Positions 2,193-19,174 of a stretch of 64,000 bases of DNA are shown in pieces. Position 1 is the first letter of the stretch. Each line of letters opens with the position of its first letter. Origin of the DNA: Chitinophagaceae bacterium (lineage in GTDB: Bacteria; Bacteroidota; Bacteroidia; Chitinophagales; Chitinophagaceae); the NCBI GenBank assembly GCA_049318705.1, contig JBMOFV010000009.1:31655-95654 (forward strand). Reading direction: 5' to 3'. The notes below the pieces were generated by a model, which was not told where the DNA came from, ran no database searches, and saw only the letters and a program-made list of their open reading frames with translations. The translations under genes were made by a program, and so were the position numbers.

Positions 2193-2960
2193 TTATTGGA
2201 ATTTAAAGGGATGCATGATTCCTTTGTAAGCCAACAGGTCGACTTTGAGCGAACCGAAGAGGATTTCGGCCTTTGCCCGGATGGGGATATGATTTTCATC
2301 ATCTGAAAGCCAAACCACCATATCTTCTTCTTTTTTGAAAATGCGACCTTTTTGTAATACCGGCACAAATTTGAGACAGCGTATTTTTCCCCAGGTGGAC
2401 TTAATCATTTCGCGACCTTTGAACTTAATTTTTAAATCATACATTTCGCCATCGACGATGGTGGGCACCGTGAAAATTTGACCTTCACGAGCACTTCCCA
2501 GATCATAAGTTCTGGCCAGAAAAAAGCCGGAAAGCATATCCTGTGTGCCGGGTTTAATGCTGACGGTTTTGCCATTGGCGCTCACCGTATTTTTATAGTG
2601 GTTAAATACATAGTCCTGTGCCATTCGAAAACCCCCTTCGTCGATTCGTCGACCAAAAAACCAGGGTAGGAGGGCTTGATCATCGATATAGGTTTCATAT
2701 CGATCGCGCACCTTAAAAAAGAAATCGAAGGTGCCTTTGGATTTTCCGATTCCAACGACATGCATCGTGTTGCGGTCGCCAAATTTTTTATTTTCGGGAA
2801 GGATTTCAATCGTTGCGACGACTGCATCGATGAAACCATAATGGATCCGGTAAGTGAGTTTTTCACCTCTTTGGAAAGCATTGTTCCGAACGGTAGGTAA
2901 TTGTGCATGAATAGTCTGTATGCTTAAGATAAAAATTACCGACAAGAAGAGATTACGCAT
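2193..2960 (-). CDS. DUF3108 domain-containing secreted protein
   Basis: 255-aa ORF with signal peptide MRNLFLSVIFILSIQTIHAQ. Overall pattern (GEKLTYRIHYGFIDA...VVGIGKSKGTFDFFFKVRDRYETYID...KIKFKGRE...WLSDDENHIPIRAKAEILFGSLKVDL) is typical of Bacteroidota DUF3108 proteins. Confidence 0.7.
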   Translation of the reverse strand: MRNLFLSVIFILSIQTIHAQLPTVRNNAFQRGEKLTYRIHYGFIDAVVATIEILPENKKFGDRNTMHVVGIGKSKGTFDFFFKVRDRYETYIDDQALLPWFFGRRIDEGGFRMAQDYVFNHYKNTVSANGKTVSIKPGTQDMLSGFFLARTYDLGSAREGQIFTVPTIVDGEMYDLKIKFKGREMIKSTWGKIRCLKFVPVLQKGRIFKKEEDMVVWLSDDENHIPIRAKAEILFGSLKVDLLAYKGIMHPFKFQ

Positions 2961-2996: not shown

Positions 2997-4175
2997 TTAC
3001 CCCGCTTCATGCGGATGCTTGAATTGACTCTTTTTTAAGTTAATGAGATTAAAACGATGTCGGTAACTAAAATAGAGACCATAGCTATATTCAAGATATT
3101 GGCCCTTCATATCAAAAAAAGGTTCGAATCGTAAATCCACAAAGAATCCGGGCAAGACTTTTTTCTGATAAAAGGCTCTGATAAAAAGTAGCTCGCGTTC
3201 TTGATGATACACAGGCGATTTTGCGGTTTCATCTGAAGCCGATTGATAGAACCATGCACCTTTGTCGGAAAGGTAGTTTTGTGATTGCCAGTAGTTGAGG
3301 CTCAATCCGATGCCCCACTTACTGAGTAAACCGGCATTGATCATCAATCCATTTCCTGAGGCGCTGCTCAGTGTTTTTGTGGGCGATAAATCTCTGAAAA
3401 GGACTCCATAAAATTCAGCCTTCATTTCTCGAATAATTCCATAAAAGTTATGTTGGTATTTGAGTCCGGCTGCAGCATTGAGTAATGTTTGTAAAGGGGT
3501 TGTATCGATATCCAATTGGCCTCCGCGATGAGTAATCATACCTTGCCACAATAAATGAACAGACTGCCTTCGATTTGCAAGTATTTTAGCGGAAGATGAA
3601 TGGCCTGCCGTAAAACGTTCTTGGTAATCAGAACCCTTGTATTGCATTCGATCCCAACTAATCCATGTATCAGACCAAAGTCGGGAACTCCATTTTTTAA
3701 CCTGTAAACCCATTTCATTATAGTGCGTTATGAAACGCTCATAATCCAGCAAGGGTTCTATTAATCGATGTCCGACTTGTGCTTCGATGTTTCCAAACAA
3801 GATCGCATACTTACCTTTTTGGTATTTGATATTGAAACGTGGTACGACTTCCTGTATGCCGGCATTACCAAAATCTTTTTTTAAAAACAATCCACCAGTC
3901 ACGGATAAATTCGGATGTGCTTCATATTCTAATTCTGTCTGCAACATCGTTCCGAACAAGGTATAACCCTGAGCCATTTCCTGAAAAAATTCATTATTCC
4001 TGAAAAAGGAATGTGAAGCCAATTTGAGGGAAATACGTTCCTGAAAGCTTCGGCTGGTATCGGGGAAATGTTCTTCAAGTGCACTTTGGTCTAACTGCGC
4101 AAAGGTGTTAAAAGGACCCAACAATAAAAGGCCGAGCATGCCAATCAGAAGCCGATTTCTTGATACATTCAACAT
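2997..4175 (-). CDS. Hypothetical outer-membrane beta-barrel-like protein
   Basis: The ORF extends to 4283, but the internal ATG at 4175 gives a clean signal peptide MLNVSRNRLLIGMLGLLLLGPFNTFAQ. The body has alternating aromatic/hydrophilic beta-strand-like segments and a C-terminal aromatic-rich end. No family recognised. Confidence 0.55.
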   Translation of the reverse strand: MLNVSRNRLLIGMLGLLLLGPFNTFAQLDQSALEEHFPDTSRSFQERISLKLASHSFFRNNEFFQEMAQGYTLFGTMLQTELEYEAHPNLSVTGGLFLKKDFGNAGIQEVVPRFNIKYQKGKYAILFGNIEAQVGHRLIEPLLDYERFITHYNEMGLQVKKWSSRLWSDTWISWDRMQYKGSDYQERFTAGHSSSAKILANRRQSVHLLWQGMITHRGGQLDIDTTPLQTLLNAAAGLKYQHNFYGIIREMKAEFYGVLFRDLSPTKTLSSASGNGLMINAGLLSKWGIGLSLNYWQSQNYLSDKGAWFYQSASDETAKSPVYHQERELLFIRAFYQKKVLPGFFVDLRFEPFFDMKGQYLEYSYGLYFSYRHRFNLINLKKSQFKHPHEAG

Positions 4176-4361
4176 TGAATGGAAAGGGCGTTTCTGATGA
4201 AGCTCATTCGCTAAAACAATGTTGAGTTTAGAGGAGCAAGATAGAACGCAGCATGAATCCATGGTGTGAAAGCTTTCATTCATCTGTCAAATGTAATGAG
4301 ACCCTTGCAAAACTACCCATTCTATCCTGAAATAGATATTTACAAACAATGACAGCAACCA

Positions 4362-7300
4362 TTAAGCATTCGCCAGCAACAAGGATTTTAAATCTTCGTT
4401 GATGGATAGAATTTCGGTGGCGATTTCTTCCTGATTCAGAATGAGTGCAAAAGCAGCCAGGGTTTCAAAAAATTCAGACTCAGTTTTTTTCTTATTGGTA
4501 TCTCCGGCATGCACCCAAATGGCACGATATTCATCTTTCACCATCTTTAGGATTTTTTTACGCTGCGTTTCTTCGGAAATCAGGTAGAGACAGAGATAAG
4601 CATTTGCTTTGGATACCATGTCCCAATAGTTTCGGTCACCGCTCGATATTCTATCATCAATGGTGTCGATATGGTTCTGGAGCTTATCGAGAATTTGTTG
4701 CCGTTCGGGTAAGGTATATTTGAAACTTTCATCATTCACCGTGAAACTTACTTTTTCACCCCAAGCCCTGTCCAGAATAAATTGTTCCAAAGTGATCCAA
4801 TTACAAAAACTGTACATATCCATTTCGCTGCCCTTAGCCGCATACGCCAGTTGATAATAACCGGCACTTATTTTGAGGTAATGATTAAATTGATGAGGTT
4901 CAATGATGGCCCATTTTTTATACGCACTACCCAGTAAAGCATATCGTTCCGATGTCTTATTAAGTTGTTGCATCAAATTGATTTTGTGAACAATGCCGCT
5001 GATTTTTGCGCCCATTTGTGTGGCTTCCTCGGAGCCCGGTGCGATGCTGTTATCCAGAAAATTCGACAAAATATGTTTACAAGAAATATTGCAATATTTT
5101 TCGATCGACTTCACATTAAATGTGGCTTTTTCGAGCGTAAATAATTTTTCATATTTCGGAATTGCAATATCGAAGCGGTTAAATTCGGAATAGGCGTAAG
5201 CTTCTTGTTCAAGAATGTCGGCGTCGTCGATATCGCTTTTTTCGATGCGTTTAGAAATTAATTCCAGTTCTTTATATAAGCCATCAGTGTTGTAAAAATC
5301 AATATCTGCTTTGCTGAGTAAATTGACAATGTCGTTTTTTGCCTCTTGTGGAATATCGTATTCGATCACGATATTTGCAGAAGGCTTTTTGTCTTGTACC
5401 AAGCGGTAAAAAGGATCGCCATAACATTGGTATGCGCCCCAGGTATTGGTATATTTAAATTTATTGAAGGTTTCTTTTCGGGCATTGCGAACCGAGGTGC
5501 CAAAATCGTCACCGGCTAACATACTTTCGTAAAACACATTGGCAAACTCAAGGGCTGCCTGGTCATCAACTGCCCAGCCAGTAACCACTACCGCTTTGAC
5601 GCCCATTTCGATCAACTGGGTGCCGATATTGGCAGCCAGTCGTGTACGATGCCGGCTGAATTCCTCAGCTTGTTGGTCCATGGTGCCTGAAAAACAACAA
5701 TTGATAAAGACCATTTCCGGAGTCACCTGCATTTGATTAAATTCATTGGTGGTGAGCAACAAAGGTTTTTCTTTTTTACCATCCATATACTTACCAATCA
5801 AAATACCGGATTCCTGGTTGTTTTCTGCATCAAAAATACCGTGTGCAGATATATGAACAACCTTATAATCACTTACATGTAATGCTTTGATGATTTCGCT
5901 GCTTTTGCCAAAAATGATGGGTTTCGGGATATTGGGGATTTCTTTTTTAAGCTTTAGATAAACGGATTCAGCTTCGCGGGCCGCTCCCGATAATTGCTGG
6001 GCAGCACTAAATCCTTCCAGGTCCGGATCGCCAATGATGAGTACTTGATTTCCTTTGGAAGAATAAACCACATTGCGGTAATCCATGGTTGCGAGTTGTC
6101 GGATCATTTTTGAACTGACACACAAGGGTTTGTTCTTATCGAGCGAGGCTTGTAATAATTCCCAGGGATAGGTAGCTGTGTATTTATCCAACACCCATAG
6201 AATGCTGTTTCGGCTACTGATGTTTTCTTTAAAATCGTTGGGGATGAGCATCTCGAAAATCACCTTCGATTCTTCCGGTGTCCATTTTTCCTGGGTGGAT
6301 ATTTTATCAATGATTTCTTCCAGTAAATGAATATTGCTTCGGAGGTCCTGCCTTTCTTCTCTTGCGCTTGCTGTCGAAGAATAGAATGAAAGATATCTGT
6401 AATTGCTGTCTCCTTCTTTTTGTTGATTTAATACGGTGAGTCGTTGCCACCATTCCGTACTACTTTCTGATGTAAGTCTGTTTCGGTTGCCATACGATTT
6501 ACGTAGTTTTCTTTCCATCCATTCAACGGCGAGTCCTTCAAAGTTTTGTTTGGATATACGGTCTAATGTTTGAAAACACTGAATAGCTTTATCATCATAC
6601 AACTCTACAAATTCAACATGTTCGATTGGGCGAATATTTTGTCCTTGTAATTGCAAGGTTTTAGCGTTGGCATTGGCTATACCTTGTAAAATACCCATGC
6701 AGGAACTTTCGATGGTTAATTTGCCATAACCGGCGCCAATGATCAGCACCGAAATACCCTTTACCTTTTTCTTTTGTGAATCTGCTTCCTGACGATTGAG
6801 TAAATAACTGATACAAGCTTTCTCGACAGAGATGGATAGATGTTGTTGGCTAAATCGCTCGATTTCGCCCAGTCCGATAATGATTGCTCCTTTAAACGAA
6901 GCTTCATGCGCATTTGGTGTAATAAAAAAATCATAAGTGCCTACAGGTCCGGGATAAACGCCCAGTCGGTGTTTGACGGACATCGCCCTTTTTAAATAGA
7001 TATCTGCAGCATACTCTGCATTGAGGATTCCATCCCGGTTAAAATGTCCGAGTATGATGGGGTATCGACTATATTTTAAATCGCCCCTTGTAACACTCAC
7101 TTTGAGTGGGGCCAACATGGCTTCTTCTTTTTTGACTTCTGTCGGAAGGCCTAAAATTCCGAGTATACCGTTCTCTTCATCGCTTTCAAACACACGGGTA
7201 TCATTCAGCACAAACTGCCGTTTTTTCGCAGGTATCAGTTCTGGTTTTCGAACGAATTGATTGGTTGTTCCGGTATGGAGCAAATCACGAATCCCTTTAA

Positions 7301-9743
7301 ATAAACTGTTGTCATTGGCCAGTCCACCATGTGTAACTGCCGTAAAATATAAAGCAGTATCCCGGTTGATATTTTCCGGAATACCAGTAGCCCATGTTAC
7401 ACTTTGGTCACCTTCGGCCGTGCCTGTAAATTGTAATTCCCCTTTGTGGGTGATGTTAAATCCATTGGGGGTATTATCGTCCTTGCCTGCAACATAAATA
7501 ACATTTGAAAAATCAATTTTGTGGGCATTACTCTGAACGAAAGAGCGGAAGGTTGCAAATTCATTCAGGGTTTTTTCGTCAGGCATATTCCACTGCAATC
7601 CACTCGCCTGCTGAAACTGTCGCCATGTTTCGGCTTTACTGAAGTCGTGAGAATCTTTATTGACCGGCATTAAATTTAACAAGCCCGGATATTTGGCAAA
7701 CATATTGATGAGTTCATCGATGTGATGTTGGAAATCAATCTTGCCCAATAACTTCACCATGCTGTCTTTGCCCGAAAGCACATAAGGAATTCGATATGAA
7801 CCCATCCATGGCGTGCCCAACATGATAAAGCGGAATTGAGGACGTTTATTGAGATCCTTCCAGAGCTGAGGATTTCTGAAAATAAAATCACGGGCAACCA
7901 ATCCACCCATACTATGTGCGATGATATGAACGGTTTGATTGTGTTTGCTCAATCGTTGCATCACCTGATCCAATCGGACACCTGCTTGTGCAACTGATTT
8001 GCGCCAGTCGTAGGGGAAGGTAACCACATCATAAGTATCGCTGAGATAGTCGGTGAGTTTTTTGTAGGATGTTTTAATCAGGCCGGTTGCTTCGATGTTT
8101 TTTTCATTGATGTCTAGTTGACTTAAATCGCCCATCATCATTCTGAGATAATGTAACCAAATCAAACTGTTATTTTTTTCAAGTGCTGAGCCCACGATAC
8201 CCGGTATCAGCACGATAATAGGTTTTTTGCCACTTACTTGGTCGTTGAAAATGCGACCATATTCAATGCCTAAAATTCCCCGTACACTTTCATCGGCGCT
8301 GCCCCGTCGGTATTCTGCAAAGGATGGGATGAGTTCGGTTTTAGCATTGAGCGCTGCAGCAATGGCGTCTTGTGTTTTTTTATTCTTAAAGTAGCTAAAA
8401 TGATTGACATCCGTTCCTTCATCAAAAAAATATTGCACCGGATTTTGTCGCATCAATCCCAGATACATGGAATTGGTATTGACGATTAGATCATTCTTGG
8501 CCTGAAATAACATTTTAGAAAGCAAGACACTTAATCCACCCAGGCTGATACTCAATGCGCCATTGCCCGAAATGACCGCAATACGGTTTTGGAAAAGGCC
8601 GTAAGGGTTTTCGGAGGTCATTTCGCCGGGGCTGCGGAGTACTTTAATGAATAAAGATTCCGGGTTCATGGATTCCAATCCGGGGAGCACATCTGTTTCA
8701 TTTTTGCTGTTTACGATTTCTGCAATCATTTCTTTGCAGATACTGACAAGCGGCGAAGCCTTACTGCCAAAAGGAATGCTTAGAACATTGATGAGTACAT
8801 TAAAATAGTTTTCGATGCGTTGACCCATGAGTGATGTTCCACCGGCGGGACAAGCAACCCGTACAAATTTACCAATCTGAATTTTTTTCTTTTTCAGGGA
8901 TTGGCGAATGGCCCTTACATGATCGGCATCCGCTTTGGCATGTTGTCGCTCGAGTAAACTCAATACGGTATCGGTAAATCCTTCCTGATATTCGCTGAAA
9001 CGCACCAATAATTCTCCAACCAAACCGCCACGAGAGTGTGAAATCAAATCAAGTTTTGTGTTGGTGGGAAGTGCATCAATGAGTTCGCGAACATTTTGAA
9101 TCGGACTTTTTGTAAGTGTTTCATGTTGAAAGCCCAGAATGCGATCGCCATAAATGGATAACATTTGCATCCATAAACTTTTATTTTCAGTATTGAGCTC
9201 TACAAATGAACCGGTCGTAGAAGATCCGGTGCCATGTAAAAACAACAGATAAGGCTGATCACTTTCTTTTTTAATATATTTTGATTTGAGTTCAAAGTTT
9301 TCGTTGATCCAATACAATCCACTTTGACCTTCCAATGATTTTTCTTCGAATCGGGTTGCCAAGGTTTTAACACCTACTTGAATGGCTTTTTTGGCAAAAA
9401 CATTGATGACTTTCAGTGCAATTTTTTTGATGATGCCTCTGCTTTGATCATCGCTTTCGATACTCAAAGGCACATCAAATAAGTCGTTGATGCCTCTTTT
9501 GCCGGCGGCTTGTTCGGGGAAAACGTCATCAAAAACATCACTGTTGCCAAACCAGGTTGTATTGTCGTCAAAAACGAGTTCAACCATTTTGTTGGGGTCC
9601 ATTTCGATTTGTACTTCCTGAGAACTACTTCGATTATTGCTGATGATGTATGATTGCACCAATTCTAATCCTTCAGGGGCATTGCTCTCAATGAGGGATG
9701 TTTCTTTGGCGTAAAATCGGATTTTGCGGTTTGTGGTTTGCAT
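4362..9743 (-). CDS. Giant multidomain protein: N-terminal region + alpha/beta-hydrolase (SHSRG elbow) + LCAT/PGAP1-like lipase module (FPYDWR, AHSMGG) + possible macro/LAP-N-like module + CHAT caspase-like protease (HISAHG, FINCCFSG) + C-terminal helical repeat domain
   Basis: Single uninterrupted 1793-codon ORF with no signal peptide. Motifs, with codon coordinates checked against the DNA: LFLHGTGSS at aa 166-174; LISHSRGG with Ser237 at 9033-9035; PIIVLIPGIVGS at aa 508-519; FPYDWR at aa 576-581; IIAHSMGG with Ser611 at 7911-7913; VVHISAHG with His1301 at 5841-5843; VFINCCFSG with Cys1350 at 5694-5696. Confidence 0.8.
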   Translation of the reverse strand: MQTTNRKIRFYAKETSLIESNAPEGLELVQSYIISNNRSSSQEVQIEMDPNKMVELVFDDNTTWFGNSDVFDDVFPEQAAGKRGINDLFDVPLSIESDDQSRGIIKKIALKVINVFAKKAIQVGVKTLATRFEEKSLEGQSGLYWINENFELKSKYIKKESDQPYLLFLHGTGSSTTGSFVELNTENKSLWMQMLSIYGDRILGFQHETLTKSPIQNVRELIDALPTNTKLDLISHSRGGLVGELLVRFSEYQEGFTDTVLSLLERQHAKADADHVRAIRQSLKKKKIQIGKFVRVACPAGGTSLMGQRIENYFNVLINVLSIPFGSKASPLVSICKEMIAEIVNSKNETDVLPGLESMNPESLFIKVLRSPGEMTSENPYGLFQNRIAVISGNGALSISLGGLSVLLSKMLFQAKNDLIVNTNSMYLGLMRQNPVQYFFDEGTDVNHFSYFKNKKTQDAIAAALNAKTELIPSFAEYRRGSADESVRGILGIEYGRIFNDQVSGKKPIIVLIPGIVGSALEKNNSLIWLHYLRMMMGDLSQLDINEKNIEATGLIKTSYKKLTDYLSDTYDVVTFPYDWRKSVAQAGVRLDQVMQRLSKHNQTVHIIAHSMGGLVARDFIFRNPQLWKDLNKRPQFRFIMLGTPWMGSYRIPYVLSGKDSMVKLLGKIDFQHHIDELINMFAKYPGLLNLMPVNKDSHDFSKAETWRQFQQASGLQWNMPDEKTLNEFATFRSFVQSNAHKIDFSNVIYVAGKDDNTPNGFNITHKGELQFTGTAEGDQSVTWATGIPENINRDTALYFTAVTHGGLANDNSLFKGIRDLLHTGTTNQFVRKPELIPAKKRQFVLNDTRVFESDEENGILGILGLPTEVKKEEAMLAPLKVSVTRGDLKYSRYPIILGHFNRDGILNAEYAADIYLKRAMSVKHRLGVYPGPVGTYDFFITPNAHEASFKGAIIIGLGEIERFSQQHLSISVEKACISYLLNRQEADSQKKKVKGISVLIIGAGYGKLTIESSCMGILQGIANANAKTLQLQGQNIRPIEHVEFVELYDDKAIQCFQTLDRISKQNFEGLAVEWMERKLRKSYGNRNRLTSESSTEWWQRLTVLNQQKEGDSNYRYLSFYSSTASAREERQDLRSNIHLLEEIIDKISTQEKWTPEESKVIFEMLIPNDFKENISSRNSILWVLDKYTATYPWELLQASLDKNKPLCVSSKMIRQLATMDYRNVVYSSKGNQVLIIGDPDLEGFSAAQQLSGAAREAESVYLKLKKEIPNIPKPIIFGKSSEIIKALHVSDYKVVHISAHGIFDAENNQESGILIGKYMDGKKEKPLLLTTNEFNQMQVTPEMVFINCCFSGTMDQQAEEFSRHRTRLAANIGTQLIEMGVKAVVVTGWAVDDQAALEFANVFYESMLAGDDFGTSVRNARKETFNKFKYTNTWGAYQCYGDPFYRLVQDKKPSANIVIEYDIPQEAKNDIVNLLSKADIDFYNTDGLYKELELISKRIEKSDIDDADILEQEAYAYSEFNRFDIAIPKYEKLFTLEKATFNVKSIEKYCNISCKHILSNFLDNSIAPGSEEATQMGAKISGIVHKINLMQQLNKTSERYALLGSAYKKWAIIEPHQFNHYLKISAGYYQLAYAAKGSEMDMYSFCNWITLEQFILDRAWGEKVSFTVNDESFKYTLPERQQILDKLQNHIDTIDDRISSGDRNYWDMVSKANAYLCLYLISEETQRKKILKMVKDEYRAIWVHAGDTNKKKTESEFFETLAAFALILNQEEIATEILSINEDLKSLLLANA

Positions 9744-10147: not shown

Positions 10148-12571
10148 ATGTTTCGAAAAATATTTTTATTCGCTGTGGTTTTCATGGTCTGTATGGCTGT
10201 TAAAGCGCAAAATCCTTGTGCCAATATCGCATTTAGTGCAAATCAAGTGGGCTCTTCCGTTAATTTTGTCACCACTGTTCCTGTTAATTTTTTGATTAAT
10301 AGTGTATCCTGGAATTTTGGAGATGGGGGCACTTCAACAATCCTGAATCCTTCACATACATATGCAAACTCTGGTGTTTATTTGCCCTGTTTGTCTATAA
10401 CTGGTTTTGTTCCGGGAACAACTACACCAATAACCTGTACGACATGTGATTCTATTTTGGTGAATAATCCCAGTGGCCCATGTAATGCTTCGTTCACATC
10501 AACCATGCTGAGTAGCAATTCCTTATCATTTACCAATACCTCCAGTGGGGCGGGAACATTATTAAGTACGGTTTGGAATTTTGGAGATGGGAATACTTCC
10601 AGTCAGGCTAATCCGATACATACATACACAAATAGCGGCTGGTATAATGTGTGTTTAACGATGACTTATTCGAGTTCATCGGGCGGGACGACTTCTTGTA
10701 ATTATTGTGATTCTGTATTTGTTCAATCCAGTACCTCATCACCTTGTGTGGCTGATTTTTCGTATAATTTCAGTAATTGTTCATACTTTTTTTCCAATAC
10801 CTCAACGGGTACAGGAACCTTGGTTTCCACGATGTGGAATTTTGGAGATGGGGGCACATCCAGTGCTACAAATCCTATTCATACTTATGCCGGATCAGGC
10901 GTTTATCCTGTTTGTTTGACAGTCGTATATGTGGATTCGGGATTAACGACAAGTTGCACCTATTGCGATACAATGTGGGTGAATTGCCAGGGTACGAGCG
11001 GACCATGTAACGCAGATTTTATTTATACGAGCAGCGGAACTTCGGCTTCATTTAACAATACATCAACTGGGTCTGGCACCTTGGTTTCATCAAGCTGGAA
11101 TTTTGGAGATGGTGGCACTTCTACTGCAACCAATCCGGTACATACATATACAAACCAGGGTTGGTATAATGTCTGTTTGAATGTGGTTTATATAGACAGT
11201 GGCGTCACTACAACTTGTACATATTGCGACAGCATTTTTGTTGGGGTTCCTGTGAATCCGTGTAATGCTGATTTTATGTTTGTTTATATGACGAATGGTG
11301 TCGTTAATTTTTTGAATACTTCATCCGGCTCAGGCAGTTTAACGGGTCTTTCATGGACCTTTGGAGATGGCGGCACATCTTCATTGATGAATCCTACACA
11401 TTCTTATAGTACTACAGGATGGTATAATGTTTGTCTAACCGTTACTTATACAAGTTCGGGCCAATCCACTACCTGTACCTATTGTGATTCTATTTTTGTT
11501 CAGGTAAATGGTGTGGGTCCTTGTAATGCGATGTATACCTACGGTAGTGGTGTTGGCAATGCGATTAATTTTACGAATACTTCAACAGGTGGAGGTATTG
11601 CAACTTCTGTTTTGTGGAATTTTGGAGATGGCAATATTTCTACATCCACGAATCCGTCCCATACATATGCCAATGCGGGGTGGTATAATGTATGTCTGAC
11701 TATGACTTACACCAACCTGGGAACTCAAAACACCTGCACCTATTGTGATAGCGTTTATGTACAAGGGGGTGGTTCAGGCCCTTGTAACGCGAATTTTAGT
11801 TCTCAATATTTGAGCAGTAATAATCTGGCATTTACGAACACATCAACGGGAAGTGGTGTGTTGACTTCTTCAAGTTGGACCTTTGGAGATGGCGGCACAT
11901 CCACTTCAACCAATCCAAGTCATACTTACGCGCAGGTAGGTTGGTATAATGTTTGTTTAACGGTGATGTACAGTTCAGCAACGGGTTCGCATACTTGTAC
12001 AACCTGTGATAGTGTTTATGTACAAAGTGTGGGCGGTGGAACAAGCGGAAATTGTTTTGCCAACGCTGCGTTTAATCAAACCATTTCCGGGAATACCGTT
12101 TCATTCAGTAATAGTAGTACCTGTAACCTTTGTACATCGGTCAGTTATATCTGGAATTTTGGAGATGCATCAGCACTTTCAACCGTGGTGAATCCAACGC
12201 ATACATACAATGCCGGTGGAAGTTATAATGTATGTTTGATTATTAATGGGGTTGATTCCAATCAACAAGTTTGTTCCGATACTTTGTGTAAACCCATCAA
12301 TGTAGGTTCATCTGCTTTAGATGAAGTGGAAGTTTCTCATTTAAACATCTACCCGAATCCGGCATCCGGAATGATTGAAATCAACATACCGACTTCTAAT
12401 CAGTTTCAGGTTCATATTCTGGATGTGAGTGGTCGCATTCAAAGCACAAAAAAATTCAATAATCATCAAGGACCCGTGCAGATGCCGGTGGATCATTTTG
12501 CATCCGGATTGTATTTTATACGGGCCGAAAGTGATGGCCAAAAGTGGCATGGTAGTTTTATCAAAAAATAG
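10148..12571 (+). CDS. Secreted protein with eight Cys-containing PKD-like repeats and a T9SS (type A) C-terminal sorting domain
   Basis: Signal peptide MFRKIFLFAVVFMVCMAVKAQ. Eight units of the form PCNA.F...W(N/T)FGDGGTS...NP.HTY...G.YNVCLT...TC.YCDS. The C-terminus LNIYPNPASGMIEINIP...GLYFIRAESDGQKWHGSFIKK is a typical T9SS CTD. Confidence 0.85.
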   Translation: MFRKIFLFAVVFMVCMAVKAQNPCANIAFSANQVGSSVNFVTTVPVNFLINSVSWNFGDGGTSTILNPSHTYANSGVYLPCLSITGFVPGTTTPITCTTCDSILVNNPSGPCNASFTSTMLSSNSLSFTNTSSGAGTLLSTVWNFGDGNTSSQANPIHTYTNSGWYNVCLTMTYSSSSGGTTSCNYCDSVFVQSSTSSPCVADFSYNFSNCSYFFSNTSTGTGTLVSTMWNFGDGGTSSATNPIHTYAGSGVYPVCLTVVYVDSGLTTSCTYCDTMWVNCQGTSGPCNADFIYTSSGTSASFNNTSTGSGTLVSSSWNFGDGGTSTATNPVHTYTNQGWYNVCLNVVYIDSGVTTTCTYCDSIFVGVPVNPCNADFMFVYMTNGVVNFLNTSSGSGSLTGLSWTFGDGGTSSLMNPTHSYSTTGWYNVCLTVTYTSSGQSTTCTYCDSIFVQVNGVGPCNAMYTYGSGVGNAINFTNTSTGGGIATSVLWNFGDGNISTSTNPSHTYANAGWYNVCLTMTYTNLGTQNTCTYCDSVYVQGGGSGPCNANFSSQYLSSNNLAFTNTSTGSGVLTSSSWTFGDGGTSTSTNPSHTYAQVGWYNVCLTVMYSSATGSHTCTTCDSVYVQSVGGGTSGNCFANAAFNQTISGNTVSFSNSSTCNLCTSVSYIWNFGDASALSTVVNPTHTYNAGGSYNVCLIINGVDSNQQVCSDTLCKPINVGSSALDEVEVSHLNIYPNPASGMIEINIPTSNQFQVHILDVSGRIQSTKKFNNHQGPVQMPVDHFASGLYFIRAESDGQKWHGSFIKK
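10310..12230 (+). repeat. In-frame tandem array of eight ~261-bp (87-codon) PKD repeat units
   Basis: The core TGGAATTTTGGAGATGG (or TGGACCTTTGGAGATGG) recurs at 10310, 10574, 10835, 11096, 11354, 11615, 11876 and 12152. Spacings are 258-276 bp, mostly 261. Confidence 0.85.
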
Positions 12572-12732: not shown

Positions 12733-13095
12733 TTAAATGATTTCTATTTTTACCCGGCATAATCCATTACCGAAAAAGCCGAGAGCTTTAGCGGCTGCTG
12801 CGCTCAAATCGATGAGGCGTTTATTGCGGGCATTCATCCGGTCGTTGATCACCACCTCTACCATCTTGCCATTCTTCAAATTAGTGACTCGCACGCGTGT
12901 GCCTAGTTTTAGAAAATTATTCGCGGCGGTTAAAGCCTCATTGCTGAATTTCTCTCCGATGGCCGTTCTTCGACCATTAAATTTTGCGTTATAATAACTG
13001 GCAACTCCTTCCCAAACACTTTTTTGAAGAACAGGGGTTTGAGCAGAAATTAAAAATGGAAACAGACTTAAACAAATGAGCAGGTATTTCCACAT
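12733..13095 (-). CDS. RlpA-like (septal ring lytic transglycosylase family, DPBB domain) lipoprotein, copy 1
   Basis: GVASYYNAKFNGRRTAIGEKFSNEALTAANNFLKLGTRVRVTNLKNGKMVEVVINDRMN...RLIDLSAAAAKALG. Start chosen at the ATG at 13095, which gives signal peptide MWKYLLICLSLFPFLISAQ. The longest ORF runs to 13167. Confidence 0.8.
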   Translation of the reverse strand: MWKYLLICLSLFPFLISAQTPVLQKSVWEGVASYYNAKFNGRRTAIGEKFSNEALTAANNFLKLGTRVRVTNLKNGKMVEVVINDRMNARNKRLIDLSAAAAKALGFFGNGLCRVKIEII

Positions 13096-13138
13096 GGCTT
13101 CAAAGTTTTTAATCTGGTAAAAATAGCCCGATAATAAA

Positions 13139-13549
13139 TTAGCGCGTAGAAATATAATCTGTTTCACCCGGAAACACTTCCATCTCTACTTCACCAATGC
13201 CTTGTTGAATGAGTCCGAGTTTTTCGGCAGCAGCTTGCGAAAGGTCAATCAGGCGTTTGTTTTTTGCATTCATGCGGTCATTGATTTTAACGACAACACT
13301 TTTGCCATTCTTCGGATTCACGATACGTACTAAAGTTCCCAGTTTTAAAAAATTATTGGCAGCGGTTAATTTGGTGTTGGAAAAAATTTCACCGGTGCTT
13401 GTTTTACGGCCATTAAATTTGGGGTGATAATAACTGGCAATGCCTTGCCAACGTTGTTGACTCACTTTTTTAAATTGAGCCATTGTGAACTGACCTACTA
13501 AACTTAAGACAAGCACAAAAACGATTATTGAAATTCTACGTAAAACCAT
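13139..13549 (-). CDS. RlpA-like (DPBB domain) lipoprotein, copy 2 (tandem paralog)
   Basis: GIASYYHPKFNGRKTSTGEIFSNTKLTAANNFLKLGTLVRIVNPKNGKSVVVKINDRMN...RLIDLSQAAAEKLG. Start chosen at 13549 (MVLRRISIIVFVLVLSLVGQFTMAQ). The longest ORF runs to 13585. Confidence 0.8.
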   Translation of the reverse strand: MVLRRISIIVFVLVLSLVGQFTMAQFKKVSQQRWQGIASYYHPKFNGRKTSTGEIFSNTKLTAANNFLKLGTLVRIVNPKNGKSVVVKINDRMNAKNKRLIDLSQAAAEKLGLIQQGIGEVEMEVFPGETDYISTR

Positions 13550-13646
13550 AAACTTAAAATTGGGAGGGCGAAGGTAAAGTTTCACTTCTCCGAATTGGGG
13601 CGTTTAGGCTTTTGTAAACATAATAAGATGTTAGGCGAGGCTTTTT

Positions 13647-14865: not shown

Positions 14866-16074
14866 TTGAAGATCTACCAACATATTCCATTTTTGAAAGC
14901 TGTGCTCCGCTATTCACTGACGGCTTTTGGCGGCCCGCAAGGGCATATGGGAATGATGTTAAAAACATTTGCGGAGAAACGTAAAGATGTGACTGAAGCT
15001 GAACTGATGGATTTTATGTCCTTTTGCCAAATGCTGCCCGGTCCTTCATCTACACAAACGATTACCCTCATTGGTTATAAAAGGGGTGGAGTCGTATTGG
15101 CGCTCATGACGCTTTTGATTTGGGTATTACCTGCGGCAGCGATGATGGGGGGGCTTGCGTTCTTGGTACATTATTTTGATATCAAAACCATCCAAACGAA
15201 TCTGTTTAAATTCATCCAACCTATGGCGGTCGGATTCTTAATGTATGCGGCCTACAAAGCTATGCGCATTAGCATCAAACATAAAGCCACCTGGATGATG
15301 ATGGGGGTCGCCTTACTGGCTACAATCATCATTCGTTCACCATGGGTTTTTCCTGCTTTGATACTGGCCGGGGGGATTGCTTCTAATTTTAGCGATAAAC
15401 GAATTCCGGATGTTTATGTGAAGCCCAAACCAGTTAAGTGGGTAAATATCTGGTGGTTTATTATTGTATTTGTTATTGCCGGGGTGCTTTCGGAGTTAGC
15501 CCGTATCAATCATTGGCCATTTGCACGGGGTTATAATTTGTTTGAAAATTTTTACCGATTCGGAAGCATCGTATTTGGTGGTGGGCATGCCCTCATACCA
15601 ATGATGTACGAGCAGTTTGTGGTACGGCCGGAAATTCTTCATTTAAAAGAATATCTGACCCCTTCTGAATTTTTGACGGGTGCGGGTATGGTGAATGCAT
15701 TGCCCGGGCCGGTTTTTTCGATTTGCACTTATGTAGGAGCTTTAAGTCTTAGTTCCTATGGTTGGTATGGCTTATTGGCGGGTTCATTGATTGCAACAGC
15801 CGGGGTTTTTTTGCCGAGTGTTTTATTGCTGTTTTTCTTTTTTCCCATTTATCATAATCTCAAACAATACACGGTCATTTATCGTGCCTTGGAAGGAATT
15901 CATGCTGTGATTGTTGGAATCATGTGGGCTTCAGGTGCACTTTTATTTCACTCCCTGCCTTTTGATTGGTCGAATCTCATCGTTATAGCCATCACATTTA
16001 GTTTGCTGATGTATTCCAAAATTCCGGCGCCACTGATTGTTTTAGGGTGGCTTTTATTGGGTTGGGCCTTGTAA
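14866..16074 (+). CDS. chrA: Chromate transporter (CHR family, two-domain form)
   Basis: FLKAVLRYSLTAFGGPQGHMGMM...FCQMLPGPSSTQ in the N-terminal half and FGGGHALIPMM...GAGMVNALPGPVFS in the second half; polytopic membrane protein. Apparent TTG start at 14866. Confidence 0.8.
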   Translation: MKIYQHIPFLKAVLRYSLTAFGGPQGHMGMMLKTFAEKRKDVTEAELMDFMSFCQMLPGPSSTQTITLIGYKRGGVVLALMTLLIWVLPAAAMMGGLAFLVHYFDIKTIQTNLFKFIQPMAVGFLMYAAYKAMRISIKHKATWMMMGVALLATIIIRSPWVFPALILAGGIASNFSDKRIPDVYVKPKPVKWVNIWWFIIVFVIAGVLSELARINHWPFARGYNLFENFYRFGSIVFGGGHALIPMMYEQFVVRPEILHLKEYLTPSEFLTGAGMVNALPGPVFSICTYVGALSLSSYGWYGLLAGSLIATAGVFLPSVLLLFFFFPIYHNLKQYTVIYRALEGIHAVIVGIMWASGALLFHSLPFDWSNLIVIAITFSLLMYSKIPAPLIVLGWLLLGWAL

Positions 16075-16111
16075 TAAAAATATTAAAGCTATTACTTGAC
16101 ATGCCTAATTG

Positions 16112-16347
16112 GGGGCTTCTGAATAACGCTCAAAATAAGTGGTGATGGGTATTCAAGCGAAATTTTAGAAACTCTCATGCACAATTTTTAAAAACCTATT
16201 TCCAAAAAGCATTCATTAGAGACTCAGAATCTTTCGCTACTCAGAAATACTGCATCTTCTGCTTTGCGGGCAAATCGCAGTATAACAATACAGCTTCATT
16301 ACCTGCGCCTTGAATCTACAGCATTACTGAGTTATTCAGGAGCCCCC
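16112..16347. mobile_element. Family-1 inverted-repeat (MITE/ERIC-like) element, minimal 236-bp copy
   Basis: Termini GGGGCTTCTGAATAAC ... GTTATTCAGGAGCCCCC. Flanked by a perfect 5-bp direct repeat AATTG (16107-16111 and 16348-16352). Homologous along its whole length to the copies at 19003 and 28182. Confidence 0.7.
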
Positions 16348-16469
16348 AATTGTTGGTTGTAATATTTGTTCCATTTTTCACCGAGGCAACTGTGATCAGC
16401 TTTAATCAAAAGGATCATTGAAAATTCTTGATGATTGGAGTCCCTTCATTTGATTCGAAAAATATGGGC

Positions 16470-16516
16470 AAAAAAAATCCGGCTTGAGTGTACAAGGGAT
16501 GAACAAACAAGCCGGA
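16470..16516 (-). terminator. Rho-independent terminator of the BNR-repeat gene
   Basis: The minus strand reads TCCGGCTTG-21 nt loop-CAAGCCGGA followed by T8, about 30 nt after the stop codon. Confidence 0.75.
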
Positions 16517-16545
16517 CGATCAATAAAAATCTGAGGACGCTTCAA

Positions 16546-18327
16546 TTATTTGGTAATCAACCTCGAGAAACGGACACCTTCCTTCGTAAGAATTTCCAGC
16601 ATATAATTTCCTTTGGCCAAATCAGGTAAGTTTAAATCAGATTTGGATTCACCTTTTTCGATTTTGATTTTTTGGTTCATAATTTGCTTGCCATCCAAAC
16701 TAATCAGTTGCACGTCTAATTCATCAGCCTGAACGCTTTTAAACGATAAGGTCAGGGTGCGATCAGCAGGGACAGGATAAACTGCAGTTAATTCTATACC
16801 GGCATTCAGTGGAGATATTTCGGTGATGGCAGTTGGCCATTCAGTGGTAACACTCACATACATTTTAGGACCTGTGCTACCACGGCCATCTGCCCAGATA
16901 TTGTAGATTTTAGAATCATTTCGAACCGAATTAAAATAATCACCAAACCATTTTCCCGTATTACTACTAGCTCCAAAATTGGTTGTTTGGGTGGTGATTT
17001 TTTTAGGTGCCCCGAAATTTGCACCATTGTTGGTGGATGTCTTAAAATAATAATCCGAAACTTTATTCACATCAATCACATAAGATCCAATCGTTACTTT
17101 TTTATTATGACAAGAGACAACGGGCATTAAAAATTTATTGCCGTTATGGGTGAGCAATAAAGGAGTGCTCCAGGTATTCCCTCCATCGGTGGAACGAGCG
17201 TAGTAAGAATTAAAATCAGGGCCGGCGCTTACCGGAAAATCACTCCAAACCAAATGCAGAATATCATCTCCATCGATGGACAAATTTGGTGTTCCGTTTT
17301 CACGGTCATGGATATAACCATTTCCCTGAGCCCCGAAAAGATTGGTGCCGTTATAAATCTGATGAGCCGCTGAATACGTGGTTCCGCCATTGGTAGAAAC
17401 TTTATGGTAAATGGTATTGGTATTCAAATCGGAATAGGTTACGTGCAGGTTTCCACTCTTGTCAACCACTAAGTTGCCAAATTGTGTTTCACCACTTACC
17501 ACCTGAAACCGGGCCGGCGCAAATCCATTGGAGGCGCTGGCTTTTTTCTTGACGGTAGTACCAACTAATGTGGGTGGTTCTGCAGAAGAAGGGAAATAGA
17601 TAAAAGAACAATACAAGCTATTGGCATTTGTGCCATTAGAATAGTCCATGGCAAACCATTGGCGATCATAAAAACCTTCGGAATTTGGATATGGTTCGAA
17701 GGTGAGTACATTTAGTGCGCAACGACCAATATAGCGGTCAGCGCCGGAAGCAACATTCCATGTGGCTCCATTGTCATTAGAACTCGCTAAATACATACAA
17801 GCATAAGCGGTATCAGGGGTGGCTTGAGAAAAAGCCAGATATATCCAGGAAAACCAGAGCTTGCCGTTTTTGTCGTACGCAAAAATCGGATCGCCGCCTC
17901 CGGCCACAAGCGTTCCAGCGCCAAAATCCTGCAACAAATAAGTGAGTGCATTAAAAGTACTGAGGTTCCAGTTTTGGCCACCATTGTTGCTATAATACAC
18001 CGGAAAGCTCAAGCCTGTTGAGGAATTGTCCATATAACTCAAAACCATCCGATTGTTGTTATTGGGATCCATGGCGATATGCGCTTCTCCTTCTTCTACT
18101 GCGGGGCTGCTACTGTTGCTGACTTTTAATTCCTGACTGGAGCGCGTTTTTTTATCAAAATAGCGGGCTTCGAAGGAGGCAATGGCATCTTCGACCGGAA
18201 CAGGAGTCCGAAATTTTTCTTTTTTCAGATGTTCGATCATACGTTCTTTCATGGAACTTCCCTGCTGAGCATGCGCAGCCATGAGGGTACAAATGCTAAT
18301 GAGGAAACAAAAGGTAGTTTTCAACAT
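16546..18327 (-). CDS. BNR/Asp-box repeat (sialidase-like beta-propeller) protein with T9SS C-terminal sorting domain
   Basis: Signal peptide MLKTTFCFLISICTLMAAHAQ. Asp-box-like motifs SNNGGQNW, SNDNGATW, STNGGTTY, STDGGNTWS, STNNGANF. C-terminal VYPVPADRTLTLSF...GNYMLEILTKEGVRFSRLITK. Confidence 0.75.
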   Translation of the reverse strand: MLKTTFCFLISICTLMAAHAQQGSSMKERMIEHLKKEKFRTPVPVEDAIASFEARYFDKKTRSSQELKVSNSSSPAVEEGEAHIAMDPNNNNRMVLSYMDNSSTGLSFPVYYSNNGGQNWNLSTFNALTYLLQDFGAGTLVAGGGDPIFAYDKNGKLWFSWIYLAFSQATPDTAYACMYLASSNDNGATWNVASGADRYIGRCALNVLTFEPYPNSEGFYDRQWFAMDYSNGTNANSLYCSFIYFPSSAEPPTLVGTTVKKKASASNGFAPARFQVVSGETQFGNLVVDKSGNLHVTYSDLNTNTIYHKVSTNGGTTYSAAHQIYNGTNLFGAQGNGYIHDRENGTPNLSIDGDDILHLVWSDFPVSAGPDFNSYYARSTDGGNTWSTPLLLTHNGNKFLMPVVSCHNKKVTIGSYVIDVNKVSDYYFKTSTNNGANFGAPKKITTQTTNFGASSNTGKWFGDYFNSVRNDSKIYNIWADGRGSTGPKMYVSVTTEWPTAITEISPLNAGIELTAVYPVPADRTLTLSFKSVQADELDVQLISLDGKQIMNQKIKIEKGESKSDLNLPDLAKGNYMLEILTKEGVRFSRLITK

Positions 18328-18377
18328 AATTTTATTTTTAGGAAAGACGAAAATAAGGACTCAAAAGTTAAGGCTCC

Positions 18378-18986
18378 TTAAAGGTTTTCAAATAGCGATA
18401 AAGAGGCGTTATTCAAAAGTTTGAACGATTTTCGGTGAAATGGTGATGGGCCGAATTCCATGATTCCTTTTCGATGGCTCAATGTTCCGTACCCTTTATT
18501 TTTATTCCATCCGTATTGCGGGAATTGATGATGAAGTTCCATCATGTATTGATCGCGGGTGGTTTTTGCCAAAACGCTTGCCGCCGCAATGGAGGCGTAC
18601 AGACTATCTCCTTTGATGATGCAGGTATGAGGTATGTTCGGATAGGGGATGAATCGGTTACCATCAATGATCAGGTATTTGGGCTTCAACGCCAATGCAT
18701 CAATCGCCAGGTGCATGGCTTTGATTGAGGCTTTCAGGATGTTGATCCGATCAATTTCTTCATGATCAACCATTGCAATACCATAAGCAAGAGCTTCTTT
18801 TAAAATCACGCCTCTTAATTCCTCCCTCACGGATTCTTTCAATGTTTTGGAATCGTTGAGTAAAGGGTGGTAAAATTTTTTTGGCAAAATAACAGCCGCC
18901 GCACAAACAGGCCCGGAAAGACAACCCCGTCCGGCCTCGTCGCAACCCGCTTCAAGGAGTTTGTTCTGGTAATATGGCTGTAACAT
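18378..18986 (-). CDS. rnhB: Ribonuclease HII
   Basis: 202 aa. EAGCDEAGRGCLSGPVCAAAVILP...DSK.L...IIDGN...KGDS.Y.SIAAASVLAKTTRD, the RNase HII pattern. Confidence 0.9.
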   Translation of the reverse strand: MLQPYYQNKLLEAGCDEAGRGCLSGPVCAAAVILPKKFYHPLLNDSKTLKESVREELRGVILKEALAYGIAMVDHEEIDRINILKASIKAMHLAIDALALKPKYLIIDGNRFIPYPNIPHTCIIKGDSLYASIAAASVLAKTTRDQYMMELHHQFPQYGWNKNKGYGTLSHRKGIMEFGPSPFHRKSFKLLNNASLSLFENL

Positions 18987-19021
18987 TTTGTAAAATTAGT
19001 TAGGGGCTCCTGAATAACGCT

Positions 19022-19053
19022 CAAAATTAGTTTTGATGGGTATTCAAGCCAAA
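19022..19053 (-). promoter_or_regulatory. Outward-facing consensus promoter inside the family-1 element, aimed at rnhB
   Basis: The minus strand reads TTTG (19053-19050), a 20-nt spacer, then TAATTTTG (19029-19022), followed by 35 nt and the rnhB ATG at 18986. This matches the Bacteroidota -33 TTTG / -7 TAnnTTTG architecture. Confidence 0.5.
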
Positions 19054-19174
19054 TTTTAGACGCCTTCGTGCACACTTTTTTAAGGCGAATTACTGAAAAG
19101 TGTTCACTTGAAATACATCATTATCGCTACTCAGAAATACTGCATCTTCTTCGTTGCTGGCAAATCGCAGTATA

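Follow-up and report, generated by a model that had tools for sequence, protein, structure and literature searches.

What would a bacterium do with one cytoplasmic protein in which two lipase-type serine hydrolases are joined to a caspase-like protease? The question is raised by a gene in a 64,000-nucleotide stretch of a Chitinophagaceae genome (assembly GCA_049318705.1, contig JBMOFV010000009.1; the whole stretch is called the window below), and the best reading of our analysis is that its product would be a cis-fused version of a known protease-effector module, in which a caspase is paired with an alpha/beta-hydrolase. To the general class, namely a conflict module that unites protease and effector in one chain and serves abortive infection or programmed death, we assign a probability of roughly 0.6. 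The original prediction, made from the letters of the window, had pictured a self-contained trigger plus effector. This is still the best-supported reading in view of published protease-effector logic, the context of relatives and a non-vertical gene tree, and overall it is partly supported.

The gene is a single open reading frame (ORF) without interruption that encodes 1793 residues, as first described, and all motifs and codons named in the original prediction, those of S237, S611, H1301 and C1350 among them, proved correct when checked against the translation. Neither a signal peptide nor a transmembrane segment was found, again as predicted; no 19-residue window reaches a Kyte-Doolittle value of 1.6, the peak being 1.57 at residue 390. 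The Pfam scan also gave no type IX secretion C-terminal domain. Four Pfam families are significant in the protein (DUF7379, LCAT, CHAT and TPR-S), and profile and structure searches together divide it into six modules: a beta-rich domain, a DUF7379 hydrolase, an LCAT-like hydrolase, a macro-fold domain, the CHAT protease and a TPR-S tail (Table 1). AlphaFold2 (AF2) models were built for the two halves of the protein, each from a 52-sequence alignment, and reach a predicted local distance difference test score (pLDDT) of 87.5 with a predicted template modelling score of 0.86 for residues 1-870, and a pLDDT of 84.8 for residues 861-1793. The segment-by-segment Pfam matches to DUF7379, LCAT and CHAT, and the Foldseek matches of the models to lysosomal phospholipase A2 (LPLA2)/LCAT, Csx29 and SAVED-CHAT, support the hydrolase and CHAT folds originally proposed. 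A protein identical to that of the window (P0001) is encoded on two ENA metagenome contigs, and a 97% identical copy in an activated-sludge Bacteroidota metagenome-assembled genome (MAG; locus L007) has no intact ORF there.

Table 1. Modules, linkers and extent of the multidomain gene, in window coordinates.
Feature	Residues	Coordinates	Strand	Basis or remark
Whole gene (stop codon included)		4362..9743	(-)	1793-residue cytoplasmic multidomain protein; ORF list and translation
N-terminal beta-rich domain	1-160	9264..9743	(-)	AF2 strands 6-118 and helix 125-136
Alpha/beta-hydrolase 1 (DUF7379)	163-470	8334..9257	(-)	Pfam PF24096, 1.3e-36
Linker 1, with R488 (8280-8282)	471-504	8232..8333	(-)	candidate protease cleavage site
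Alpha/beta-hydrolase 2 (LCAT / lysosomal phospholipase A2-like)	505-830	7254..8231	(-)	Pfam LCAT, 1.5e-12
Linker 2, with R842 (7218-7220), then L-L-G-L (L864, G865)	831-879	7107..7253	(-)	candidate cleavage site
Macro-fold domain near M17 leucine aminopeptidase N-domain	~880-1082	6498..7106	(-)	Foldseek and profiles
Linker 3, G1085-x-R-x-R1089 (R1089 codon 6477-6479)	1083-1097	6453..6497	(-)	candidate cleavage site
CHAT caspase-fold protease region (Pfam CHAT 1160-1443)	1098-1450	5394..6452	(-)	Pfam, 5.9e-28
All-helical repeat tail with TPR-S (sensor-type TPR)	1451-1793	4365..5393	(-)	Pfam and AF2

Both hydrolases carry a predicted catalytic triad in the canonical alpha/beta-hydrolase order, as judged from the secondary structure of the AF2 model. 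In hydrolase 1 the triad consists of Ser237 (9033-9035), in the nucleophile elbow SHSRGG, Asp418 (8490-8492) and His448 (8400-8402), which follow the modelled strands 228-236, 389-393 and 436-441, respectively; a helical insertion occupies residues ~300-388. In hydrolase 2 it consists of Ser611 (7911-7913), in the elbow AHSMGG, Asp779 (7407-7409) and His805 (7329-7331), and an FPYDWR motif is present. This domain scores 47.9 bits against Pfam LCAT (PF02450), for which the cut-off is 21 bits, with PGAP1 and DUF676 matching the same stretch more weakly; by this score above the curated threshold and by its Ser-Asp-His order, it belongs to the LCAT/LPLA2 family. Searched against the PDB, the family profile reached LCAT and LPLA2 at 2e-7, and the best Foldseek matches of the N-terminal half were LPLA2 (4x95_A, E 1e-8, TM 0.60) and LCAT (6mvd), followed by bacterial lipases. 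Hydrolase 2 resembles LCAT/LPLA2 in the order of its triad, in its AHSMGG elbow and FPYDWR-type motif and in its fold, whereas here we are dealing with a bacterial cytoplasmic domain set inside a multidomain chain, at 16-18% identity, with a putative activity and substrate. The two hydrolases had been called different and unrelated. Different they are, but as distinct families of one superfamily: the DUF7379 profile weakly matches hydrolase 2 (4.6e-4), and PGAP1 weakly matches both.

The protease contains the caspase-type dyad, with His1301 (5841-5843) in HISAHG and Cys1350 (5694-5696) in NCCFSG. For the C-terminal half, Foldseek ranked first the TPR-CHAT protein Csx29 of Craspase (7y85_D, 8.5e-6) and SAVED-CHAT (8tl0). 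These proteases, of type III-E and type III-B systems respectively, provide the best structural match for the protease and are examples of regulated CHAT domains in immunity. However, the identity is ~11-13%, the window has no CRISPR, gRAMP or Csx30/31 context and the protein has no SAVED domain. Moreover, Csx29 has an N-terminal TPR and a separate protein substrate, whereas the repeats here are C-terminal and the effectors are fused lipases. The comparison with type III-E TPR-CHAT drawn in the original prediction thus stands for the protease fold and not beyond it, since the repeats are on the opposite side of the protease and the neighbourhood of the window gene holds no CRISPR-associated genes. 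The tail had been described as helical and repeat-like, and it does contain a Pfam TPR-S domain (2.5e-7 at residues 1589-1652 in the full protein, 3.1e-8 when the tail is scanned alone); AF2 models it as a helical solenoid with one beta hairpin. Conservation is lower here than in any other part of the protein.

Conservation was counted on 38 orthologues at first, and then on 77 full-length Bacteroidota homologues of 35-46% identity, to which the counts given here refer. The catalytic residues are conserved in orthologues: all eight (S237, D418, H448, S611, D779, H805, H1301 and C1350) are invariant in 77/77, as is G1302, while C1349 is found in 76/77. This bears on a reversed assignment of roles, in which CHAT would be the executioner, acting by broad proteolysis, and the lipase-like domains would serve as sensors or regulators in the manner of the plant EDS1 family. 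Effector-less caspase-like proteases can indeed defend alone (PMC12642450, discussion), and the caspase of type IV Thoeris, whose TIR partner has counterparts adjacent to some relatives of our gene, degrades proteins indiscriminately. The invariance of both triads together with the oxyanion and elbow motifs nevertheless argues for catalysis over mere binding, and the protease core is also paired with a plainly lytic phospholipase D (PLD) or GH108 lysozyme in place of the lipases. We regard such a reversal as quite improbable.

The pairing with other enzymes becomes apparent when the protein is divided into parts. Its C-terminal 930 residues, comprising the macro-fold domain, CHAT and TPR-S, are a constant core, which is also encoded on its own as a protein of ~920-980 residues (at least 162 matches), found in many Alphaproteobacteria and in metagenomes. 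A search of all 50% identity clusters gave 1391 representatives of the core at E<=1e-30, whose lengths peak at ~950, ~1250-1420 and ~1780 residues, with a few above 2200; some intermediate relatives have a single LCAT-like domain fused to the core. In one locus (L093, 2339-9922), the core is preceded by separate genes for an LCAT-like protein (451 residues), an unassigned 492-residue protein and a PLDc_2 protein (555 residues), an arrangement that suggests several effectors per protease. In Rhizobium and Mesorhizobium (L088, 7004-11291; L091/L092, 7001-11284), a core of 933-936 residues is followed by a 205-residue GH108 lysozyme with PG_binding_3, which may be an alternative lytic effector, and by a 249-residue ORF; these loci are flanked by TIR-WD40 and TIR-iSTAND genes.

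Two departures from the usual layout were seen among the relatives. The 2374-residue protein P0479 carries a second DUF7379 domain at its C-terminus (residues 2097-2271), in the place usually taken by TPR-S. On a Qingshengfaniella plasmid (L089, 6839-9361), an LCAT-like hydrolase homologous to residues 510-861 is fused to a trypsin-like peptidase, not to CHAT. A natural two-gene split, with DUF7379 and LCAT in one gene and the core in the next (L094, 4620-9940), was considered and rejected: translation places the His motif of LCAT before the annotated start of the second gene and in the frame of that gene, and the split is a frameshift in a long-read assembly. The splits in L083, L084, L096 and L097 are probably artefacts of the same kind, and apparent split versions in long-read MAGs were left out of the evidence. 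Most stand-alone DUF7379 matches are fragments.

A published precedent exists for the coupling of such a protease to such a hydrolase. In NTP-dependent conflict systems, caspase-superfamily domains always occur with a neighbouring alpha/beta-hydrolase gene (Kaur et al. 2020, PMC7159879), and a Lysobacter caspase-like protease cuts its alpha/beta-hydrolase zymogen at two sites, between R and G, thereby unleashing toxicity (Evans et al. 2025 preprint, PMC12642450). The window protein and its relatives share with this module a caspase-fold cysteine protease coupled to an alpha/beta-hydrolase, the death effector of the module, as well as the attachment of sensor repeats and, in a minority of relatives, of STAND NTPases in varying combinations, and the Arg-small motifs in the flexible segments around the hydrolases recall the two R-G sites of LcHydrolase. 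As would be expected of a member, the protease has an intact His-Cys dyad and a genetically linked hydrolase, fused in cis in hundreds of homologues. In contrast to LcCaspase and LcHydrolase, the present system is a single polypeptide with two different hydrolases in tandem, whose cleavage, toxicity and role in defence are predictions; and in place of a short caspase it has a long CHAT protease with a macro-fold domain before it and TPR-S after it.

Conserved basic motifs lie in three linkers between the modules. Linker 1 contains the motif D-R-[G/N]-x-[L/F]-[G/K]-L-[D/E]-G-G, in which R488 is kept in all 77 aligned homologues, and the pLDDT falls below 50 at residues 482-492. Linker 2 has an Arg-[small] pair within residues 836-850 in 77/77 and G865 in 76/77, with low pLDDT at residues 869-874. 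In linker 3, G1085 is found in 74/77 and R1089 in 69/77, and residues 1093-1097 have a pLDDT below 50. That these linkers with their Arg motifs would be the cleavage sites of CHAT is a tentative assignment, to which we give a little less than an even chance.

We propose the following mechanism for the fused module. In the resting state, the hydrolases would be latent within the intact chain. The TPR-S tail would sense an invader- or stress-derived cue, a task that could fall instead, in some relatives, to the adjacent nSTAND1 NTPase or TIR protein. Recognition would probably lead to oligomerisation and thereby to active CHAT. The macro-fold domain may contribute to this step, because its aminopeptidase relative is an assembly domain. 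CHAT would then cut the flexible linkers at the Arg motifs (R488, R842 and R1089), in cis or in trans. Lastly, the freed or unmasked hydrolases would degrade membrane phospholipids, resulting in membrane collapse and in death of the cell before the phage cycle is completed.

The architecture is not a one-off. Among the 1546 matches in the protein database, the best 120 are all ~1755-1825 residues long and nearly all have the same four Pfam domains, and a scan of one genome per species located relatives in at least 598 species genomes. Of these relatives the best 80 were kept; most of them are full-length, and they belong to Chitinophagales, Cytophagales, Flavobacteriales and Bacteroidales-type lineages. 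Proteobacterial plasmids carry the protein as well: copies in Ensifer, Paracoccus and Azotobacter cover 82-89% of it at 26-28% identity. A match in Burkholderia extends over 75%. Phage and viral collections were searched and no relatives were found in them, a result that we count as neutral rather than negative.

The gene tree, built by neighbour-joining and without support values, is scrambled and not vertical. Flavobacteriales, the Draconibacterium group and Algoriphagus each cohere; the Chitinophagaceae genera fall into six or more deep clades, and two copies occur in some genomes. With this non-vertical tree and with neighbours that are not conserved (no conserved neighbour was found across 78 loci), the gene is an accessory one and not part of a universal core.

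A minority of the relatives have conflict genes (nSTAND1, TIR, SIR2, Dpd or restriction-modification) beside them. In L014, a SIR2-TIR gene (449 residues) and then an nSTAND1 gene (731 residues) lie upstream on the same strand (3079-6633; the family gene starts at 6822), with gaps of 10 and 189 bp, an arrangement that resembles an operon variant of the system with three genes. In L032, L051, L023 and L083, nSTAND1 is found within a few genes, with or without TIR or SIR2; a TIR gene is immediately upstream in L084 and L096, and a SIR2 gene is downstream in L090. On a Chitinophagaceae chromosome (OY970066.1) that also holds the L062 copy, nSTAND1 is fused to DUF7379-LCAT-CHAT-TPR-S in a protein of 2387 residues (P0403; L095, 6001-13164), which may be genuine or may result from erroneous read-through in long-read assembly; the 473-residue gene upstream of it gives a faint TIR_2 match only. 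In three Chitinophaga loci (L027, L037 and L042, ~15050-19150), the next gene downstream encodes a 1330-residue SNF2 helicase that is DpdE-like (PADLOC, E 3.5e-178), DpdE belonging to the Dpd DNA-modification defence system. The Azotobacter plasmid copy adjoins a type I restriction-modification system, a recombinase and insertion sequence (IS) elements. The claim that the gene has no NTPase partner therefore holds for the window and not for the family, in which some relatives have nSTAND1 beside them or fused to them and several have TIR directly upstream.

Several observations weigh against an immune module that works in the proposed way. Housekeeping genes (murB, gcvP, ffh and rpsP) are the neighbours in the window and in most Bacteroidota loci, and the GC content is flat across the region. 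The family is widespread in Bacteroidota in contexts that are mostly housekeeping, which is not typical defence-island behaviour, and its position is stable within genera such as Aequorivita, unlike that of typical mobile defence islands. PADLOC-DB v2 (2023) contains no family that matches the protein at E<=1. The lipid substrates of both hydrolases are suggested by family resemblance. Related CHAT proteases cut after Leu or Met, and the Arg motifs may thus not be cleavage sites.

Part of the same evidence fits a non-immune enzyme, for example one for regulated lipid remodelling or for autolysis (stress-related, developmental, or social lysis in gliding or filamentous Bacteroidota), with the protease as its maturation switch. 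Wide occurrence in the phylum, housekeeping neighbours up to an insertion between ffh and rpsP, stable within-genus synteny and flat GC would all suit such an enzyme. We nevertheless consider it unlikely: the tree is scrambled and single genomes contain paralogues, plasmid copies lie beside restriction-modification and IS elements, adjacency or fusion to nSTAND1, TIR, SIR2 and Dpd genes recurs, and no operon partner comes from lipid metabolism. The insertion just mentioned is found in Ferruginibacter and other Chitinophagaceae (e.g. L009, L012, L013, L018 and L038), where the gene, 5.3 kb long, separates ffh (SRP54) from rpsP (ribosomal protein S16), two genes that are usually adjacent to each other. 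The immediate neighbours as a whole (n=132) are mostly housekeeping genes (ffh, rpsP, pfk).

The module between hydrolase 2 and CHAT, left unassigned at residues ~880-1075 in the original prediction, can now be described as a macro-fold domain near Peptidase_M17_N. The modelled structure of residues ~880-1082 has a macro fold according to Foldseek, the matches being TTHA0132 (2dx6, TMt 0.75), macroH2A1.1, Af1521 and MacroD2, and also leucine aminopeptidases. By sequence, the closest family is Peptidase_M17_N (PF02789): 10 of 28 family members match it, the best at 3e-4, several relatives of ~930 residues carry a precomputed PF02789 match, and the family profile reaches the N-domain of Xanthomonas PepA (3jru) in the PDB at E 0.03. 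The Pfam Macro model is absent among the families matched by the same 28 members. The conserved motifs are GDL, GHF and IGxGYGG, and H900 is conserved in 77/77; the IGxGYGG loop occupies the diphosphate-binding position of macro domains and remains glycine-rich in the proteobacterial copies. The likeness to the N-domain of M17 leucine aminopeptidase/PepA thus lies in both sequence family and fold, whereas the window protein has no M17 catalytic domain and has the additional glycine-rich IGxGYGG loop. With ADP-ribose-binding macro domains it has the fold in common, and of the sequence and pocket motifs of the Macro family only the glycine-rich loop is similar. A classical ADP-ribose-binding macro domain, our first reading of the Foldseek matches, was therefore set aside, and because the sequence profiles lead to Peptidase_M17_N instead, we keep a ligand-sensing role only as a low-probability alternative.

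In that alternative, the protein would be a signal-gated effector like those of Thoeris: the macro-fold domain, and not TPR-S, would bind a small molecule that a TIR or SIR2 protein derives from NAD and would switch on CHAT and the lipases, the signal coming from an operon partner in some relatives and from another system or a phage in the genome of the window. Thoeris indeed unites comparable parts, namely a macro-domain effector that binds His-ADPR (type II) and a TIR protein with a caspase-like protease (type IV), so that both a macro domain that receives TIR signals and a caspase-like effector switched on by TIR have precedents; our protein has a macro fold and a caspase-fold protease in one chain, and in several relatives a TIR gene lies immediately upstream. 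The fold and the position of the glycine-rich loop, which match ADP-ribose-binding macro domains, are compatible with this, as are the TIR or SIR2 genes adjacent in L014, L084, L088/L091, L090 and L096 and the faint TIR_2 match in L095. However, there is no TIR, STAND or SIR2 gene in the 64-kb window, and most loci have neither TIR nor SIR2. The TIR neighbours are often large STAND- or WD40-type proteins, possibly independent systems of the same island. Moreover, the macro-fold domain here is of the aminopeptidase N-domain type, a branch not known to bind ADP-ribose, no Pfam Macro model was among the families listed for its members, and the caspase of type IV Thoeris (ThsE) has a different, C-terminal ligand domain, which sets our protein apart from that type. 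The family is also not found in the available part of the supplements of a survey of TIR effectors.

We judge a Thoeris-like gating unlikely. The more specific claim, in which the macro-fold domain receives a TIR- or SIR2-made nucleotide signal derived from NAD and the family is a new class of Thoeris-like executioner, is slightly more doubtful. If it were true, the relatives with TIR upstream, with or without nSTAND1, would obtain the signal from their operon partner, and the partner-less majority in Bacteroidota, including the window, would eavesdrop on ADP-ribose-type products of other defence systems or of phage enzymes.

The remaining module is the N-terminal beta-rich domain. It has no Pfam match, its block-mean pLDDT is mostly 63-95, and it is kept in the proteobacterial homologues, whose alignments begin at residue 2, 25-26 or 29.

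Large multidomain proteins of this kind could also be secreted or injected polymorphic lipase toxins, delivered by a type VI or type IX system or as vesicle cargo and processed by their own CHAT domain after delivery; interbacterial Tle effectors make use of lipase folds of the LCAT/PGAP1 type. The protein lacks a signal peptide, a transmembrane segment and a type IX secretion C-terminal domain, VgrG, PAAR and Hcp are absent from the 25 most frequent Pfam families of the 132 immediate neighbours, and a conserved downstream immunity gene was not found. The TPR-S tail and the STAND fusions are, moreover, typical of intracellular sensors. A delivered toxin is accordingly the most improbable of the alternatives that we weighed, and very improbable in itself.

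For the cis-fused protease-effector module, no paper describing the architecture was found in the literature searched, nor any on DUF7379, and nothing useful came from NCBIfam. TPR-S is absent from the main text of both Aravind-lab papers; CHAT, LCAT and DUF7379 are not mentioned in the main text or the available supplements of the TIR-effector survey, and a survey of STAND proteins mentions neither nSTAND1 nor hydrolase effectors. If the module does act as proposed, it would be a very compact immune executioner, in which a single polypeptide combines the sensor and the protease switch with two enzymes that attack membranes. Effector activation gated by proteolysis would then reach to lipases fused in cis, around a constant core that swaps its lytic effectors (lipases, PLD or lysozyme), and there would be a testable system for Bacteroidota, to which defence studies have paid little attention.

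In the window, the flanks are of the ordinary surface-protein and housekeeping type that had been noted at the outset: murB, gcvP, rnhB, a surface protein with PKD repeats and type IX secretion, and a Lipid_A_deac-like outer-membrane protein. The last of these (2997-4283, minus strand) starts 78 bp downstream of the gene and is followed by a DUF3108 gene (2193-2960, minus strand). The two were considered as operon partners and rejected, as the pairing is not kept beside relatives; it recurs in the identical loci L001/L002 only and not in distant relatives. A scan for promoters and terminators was not informative: its counts were close to those expected from shuffling, and the consensus used is not of the Bacteroidota type. 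Divergent from the gene lies that of the surface protein (10148-12571, plus strand; 807 residues), which consists of PKD-type repeats, about eight in number, nearly identical and each ~85 residues long. The repeats are Cys-rich and carry the motifs NTS.G.G and FGDG.TS, and the C-terminus of the protein is a type IX secretion sorting domain. Beyond it, two DPBB_1 (RlpA-like) paralogues, 144 and 148 residues long, lie in tandem (12733-13585, minus strand) and overlap by ~29 bp.

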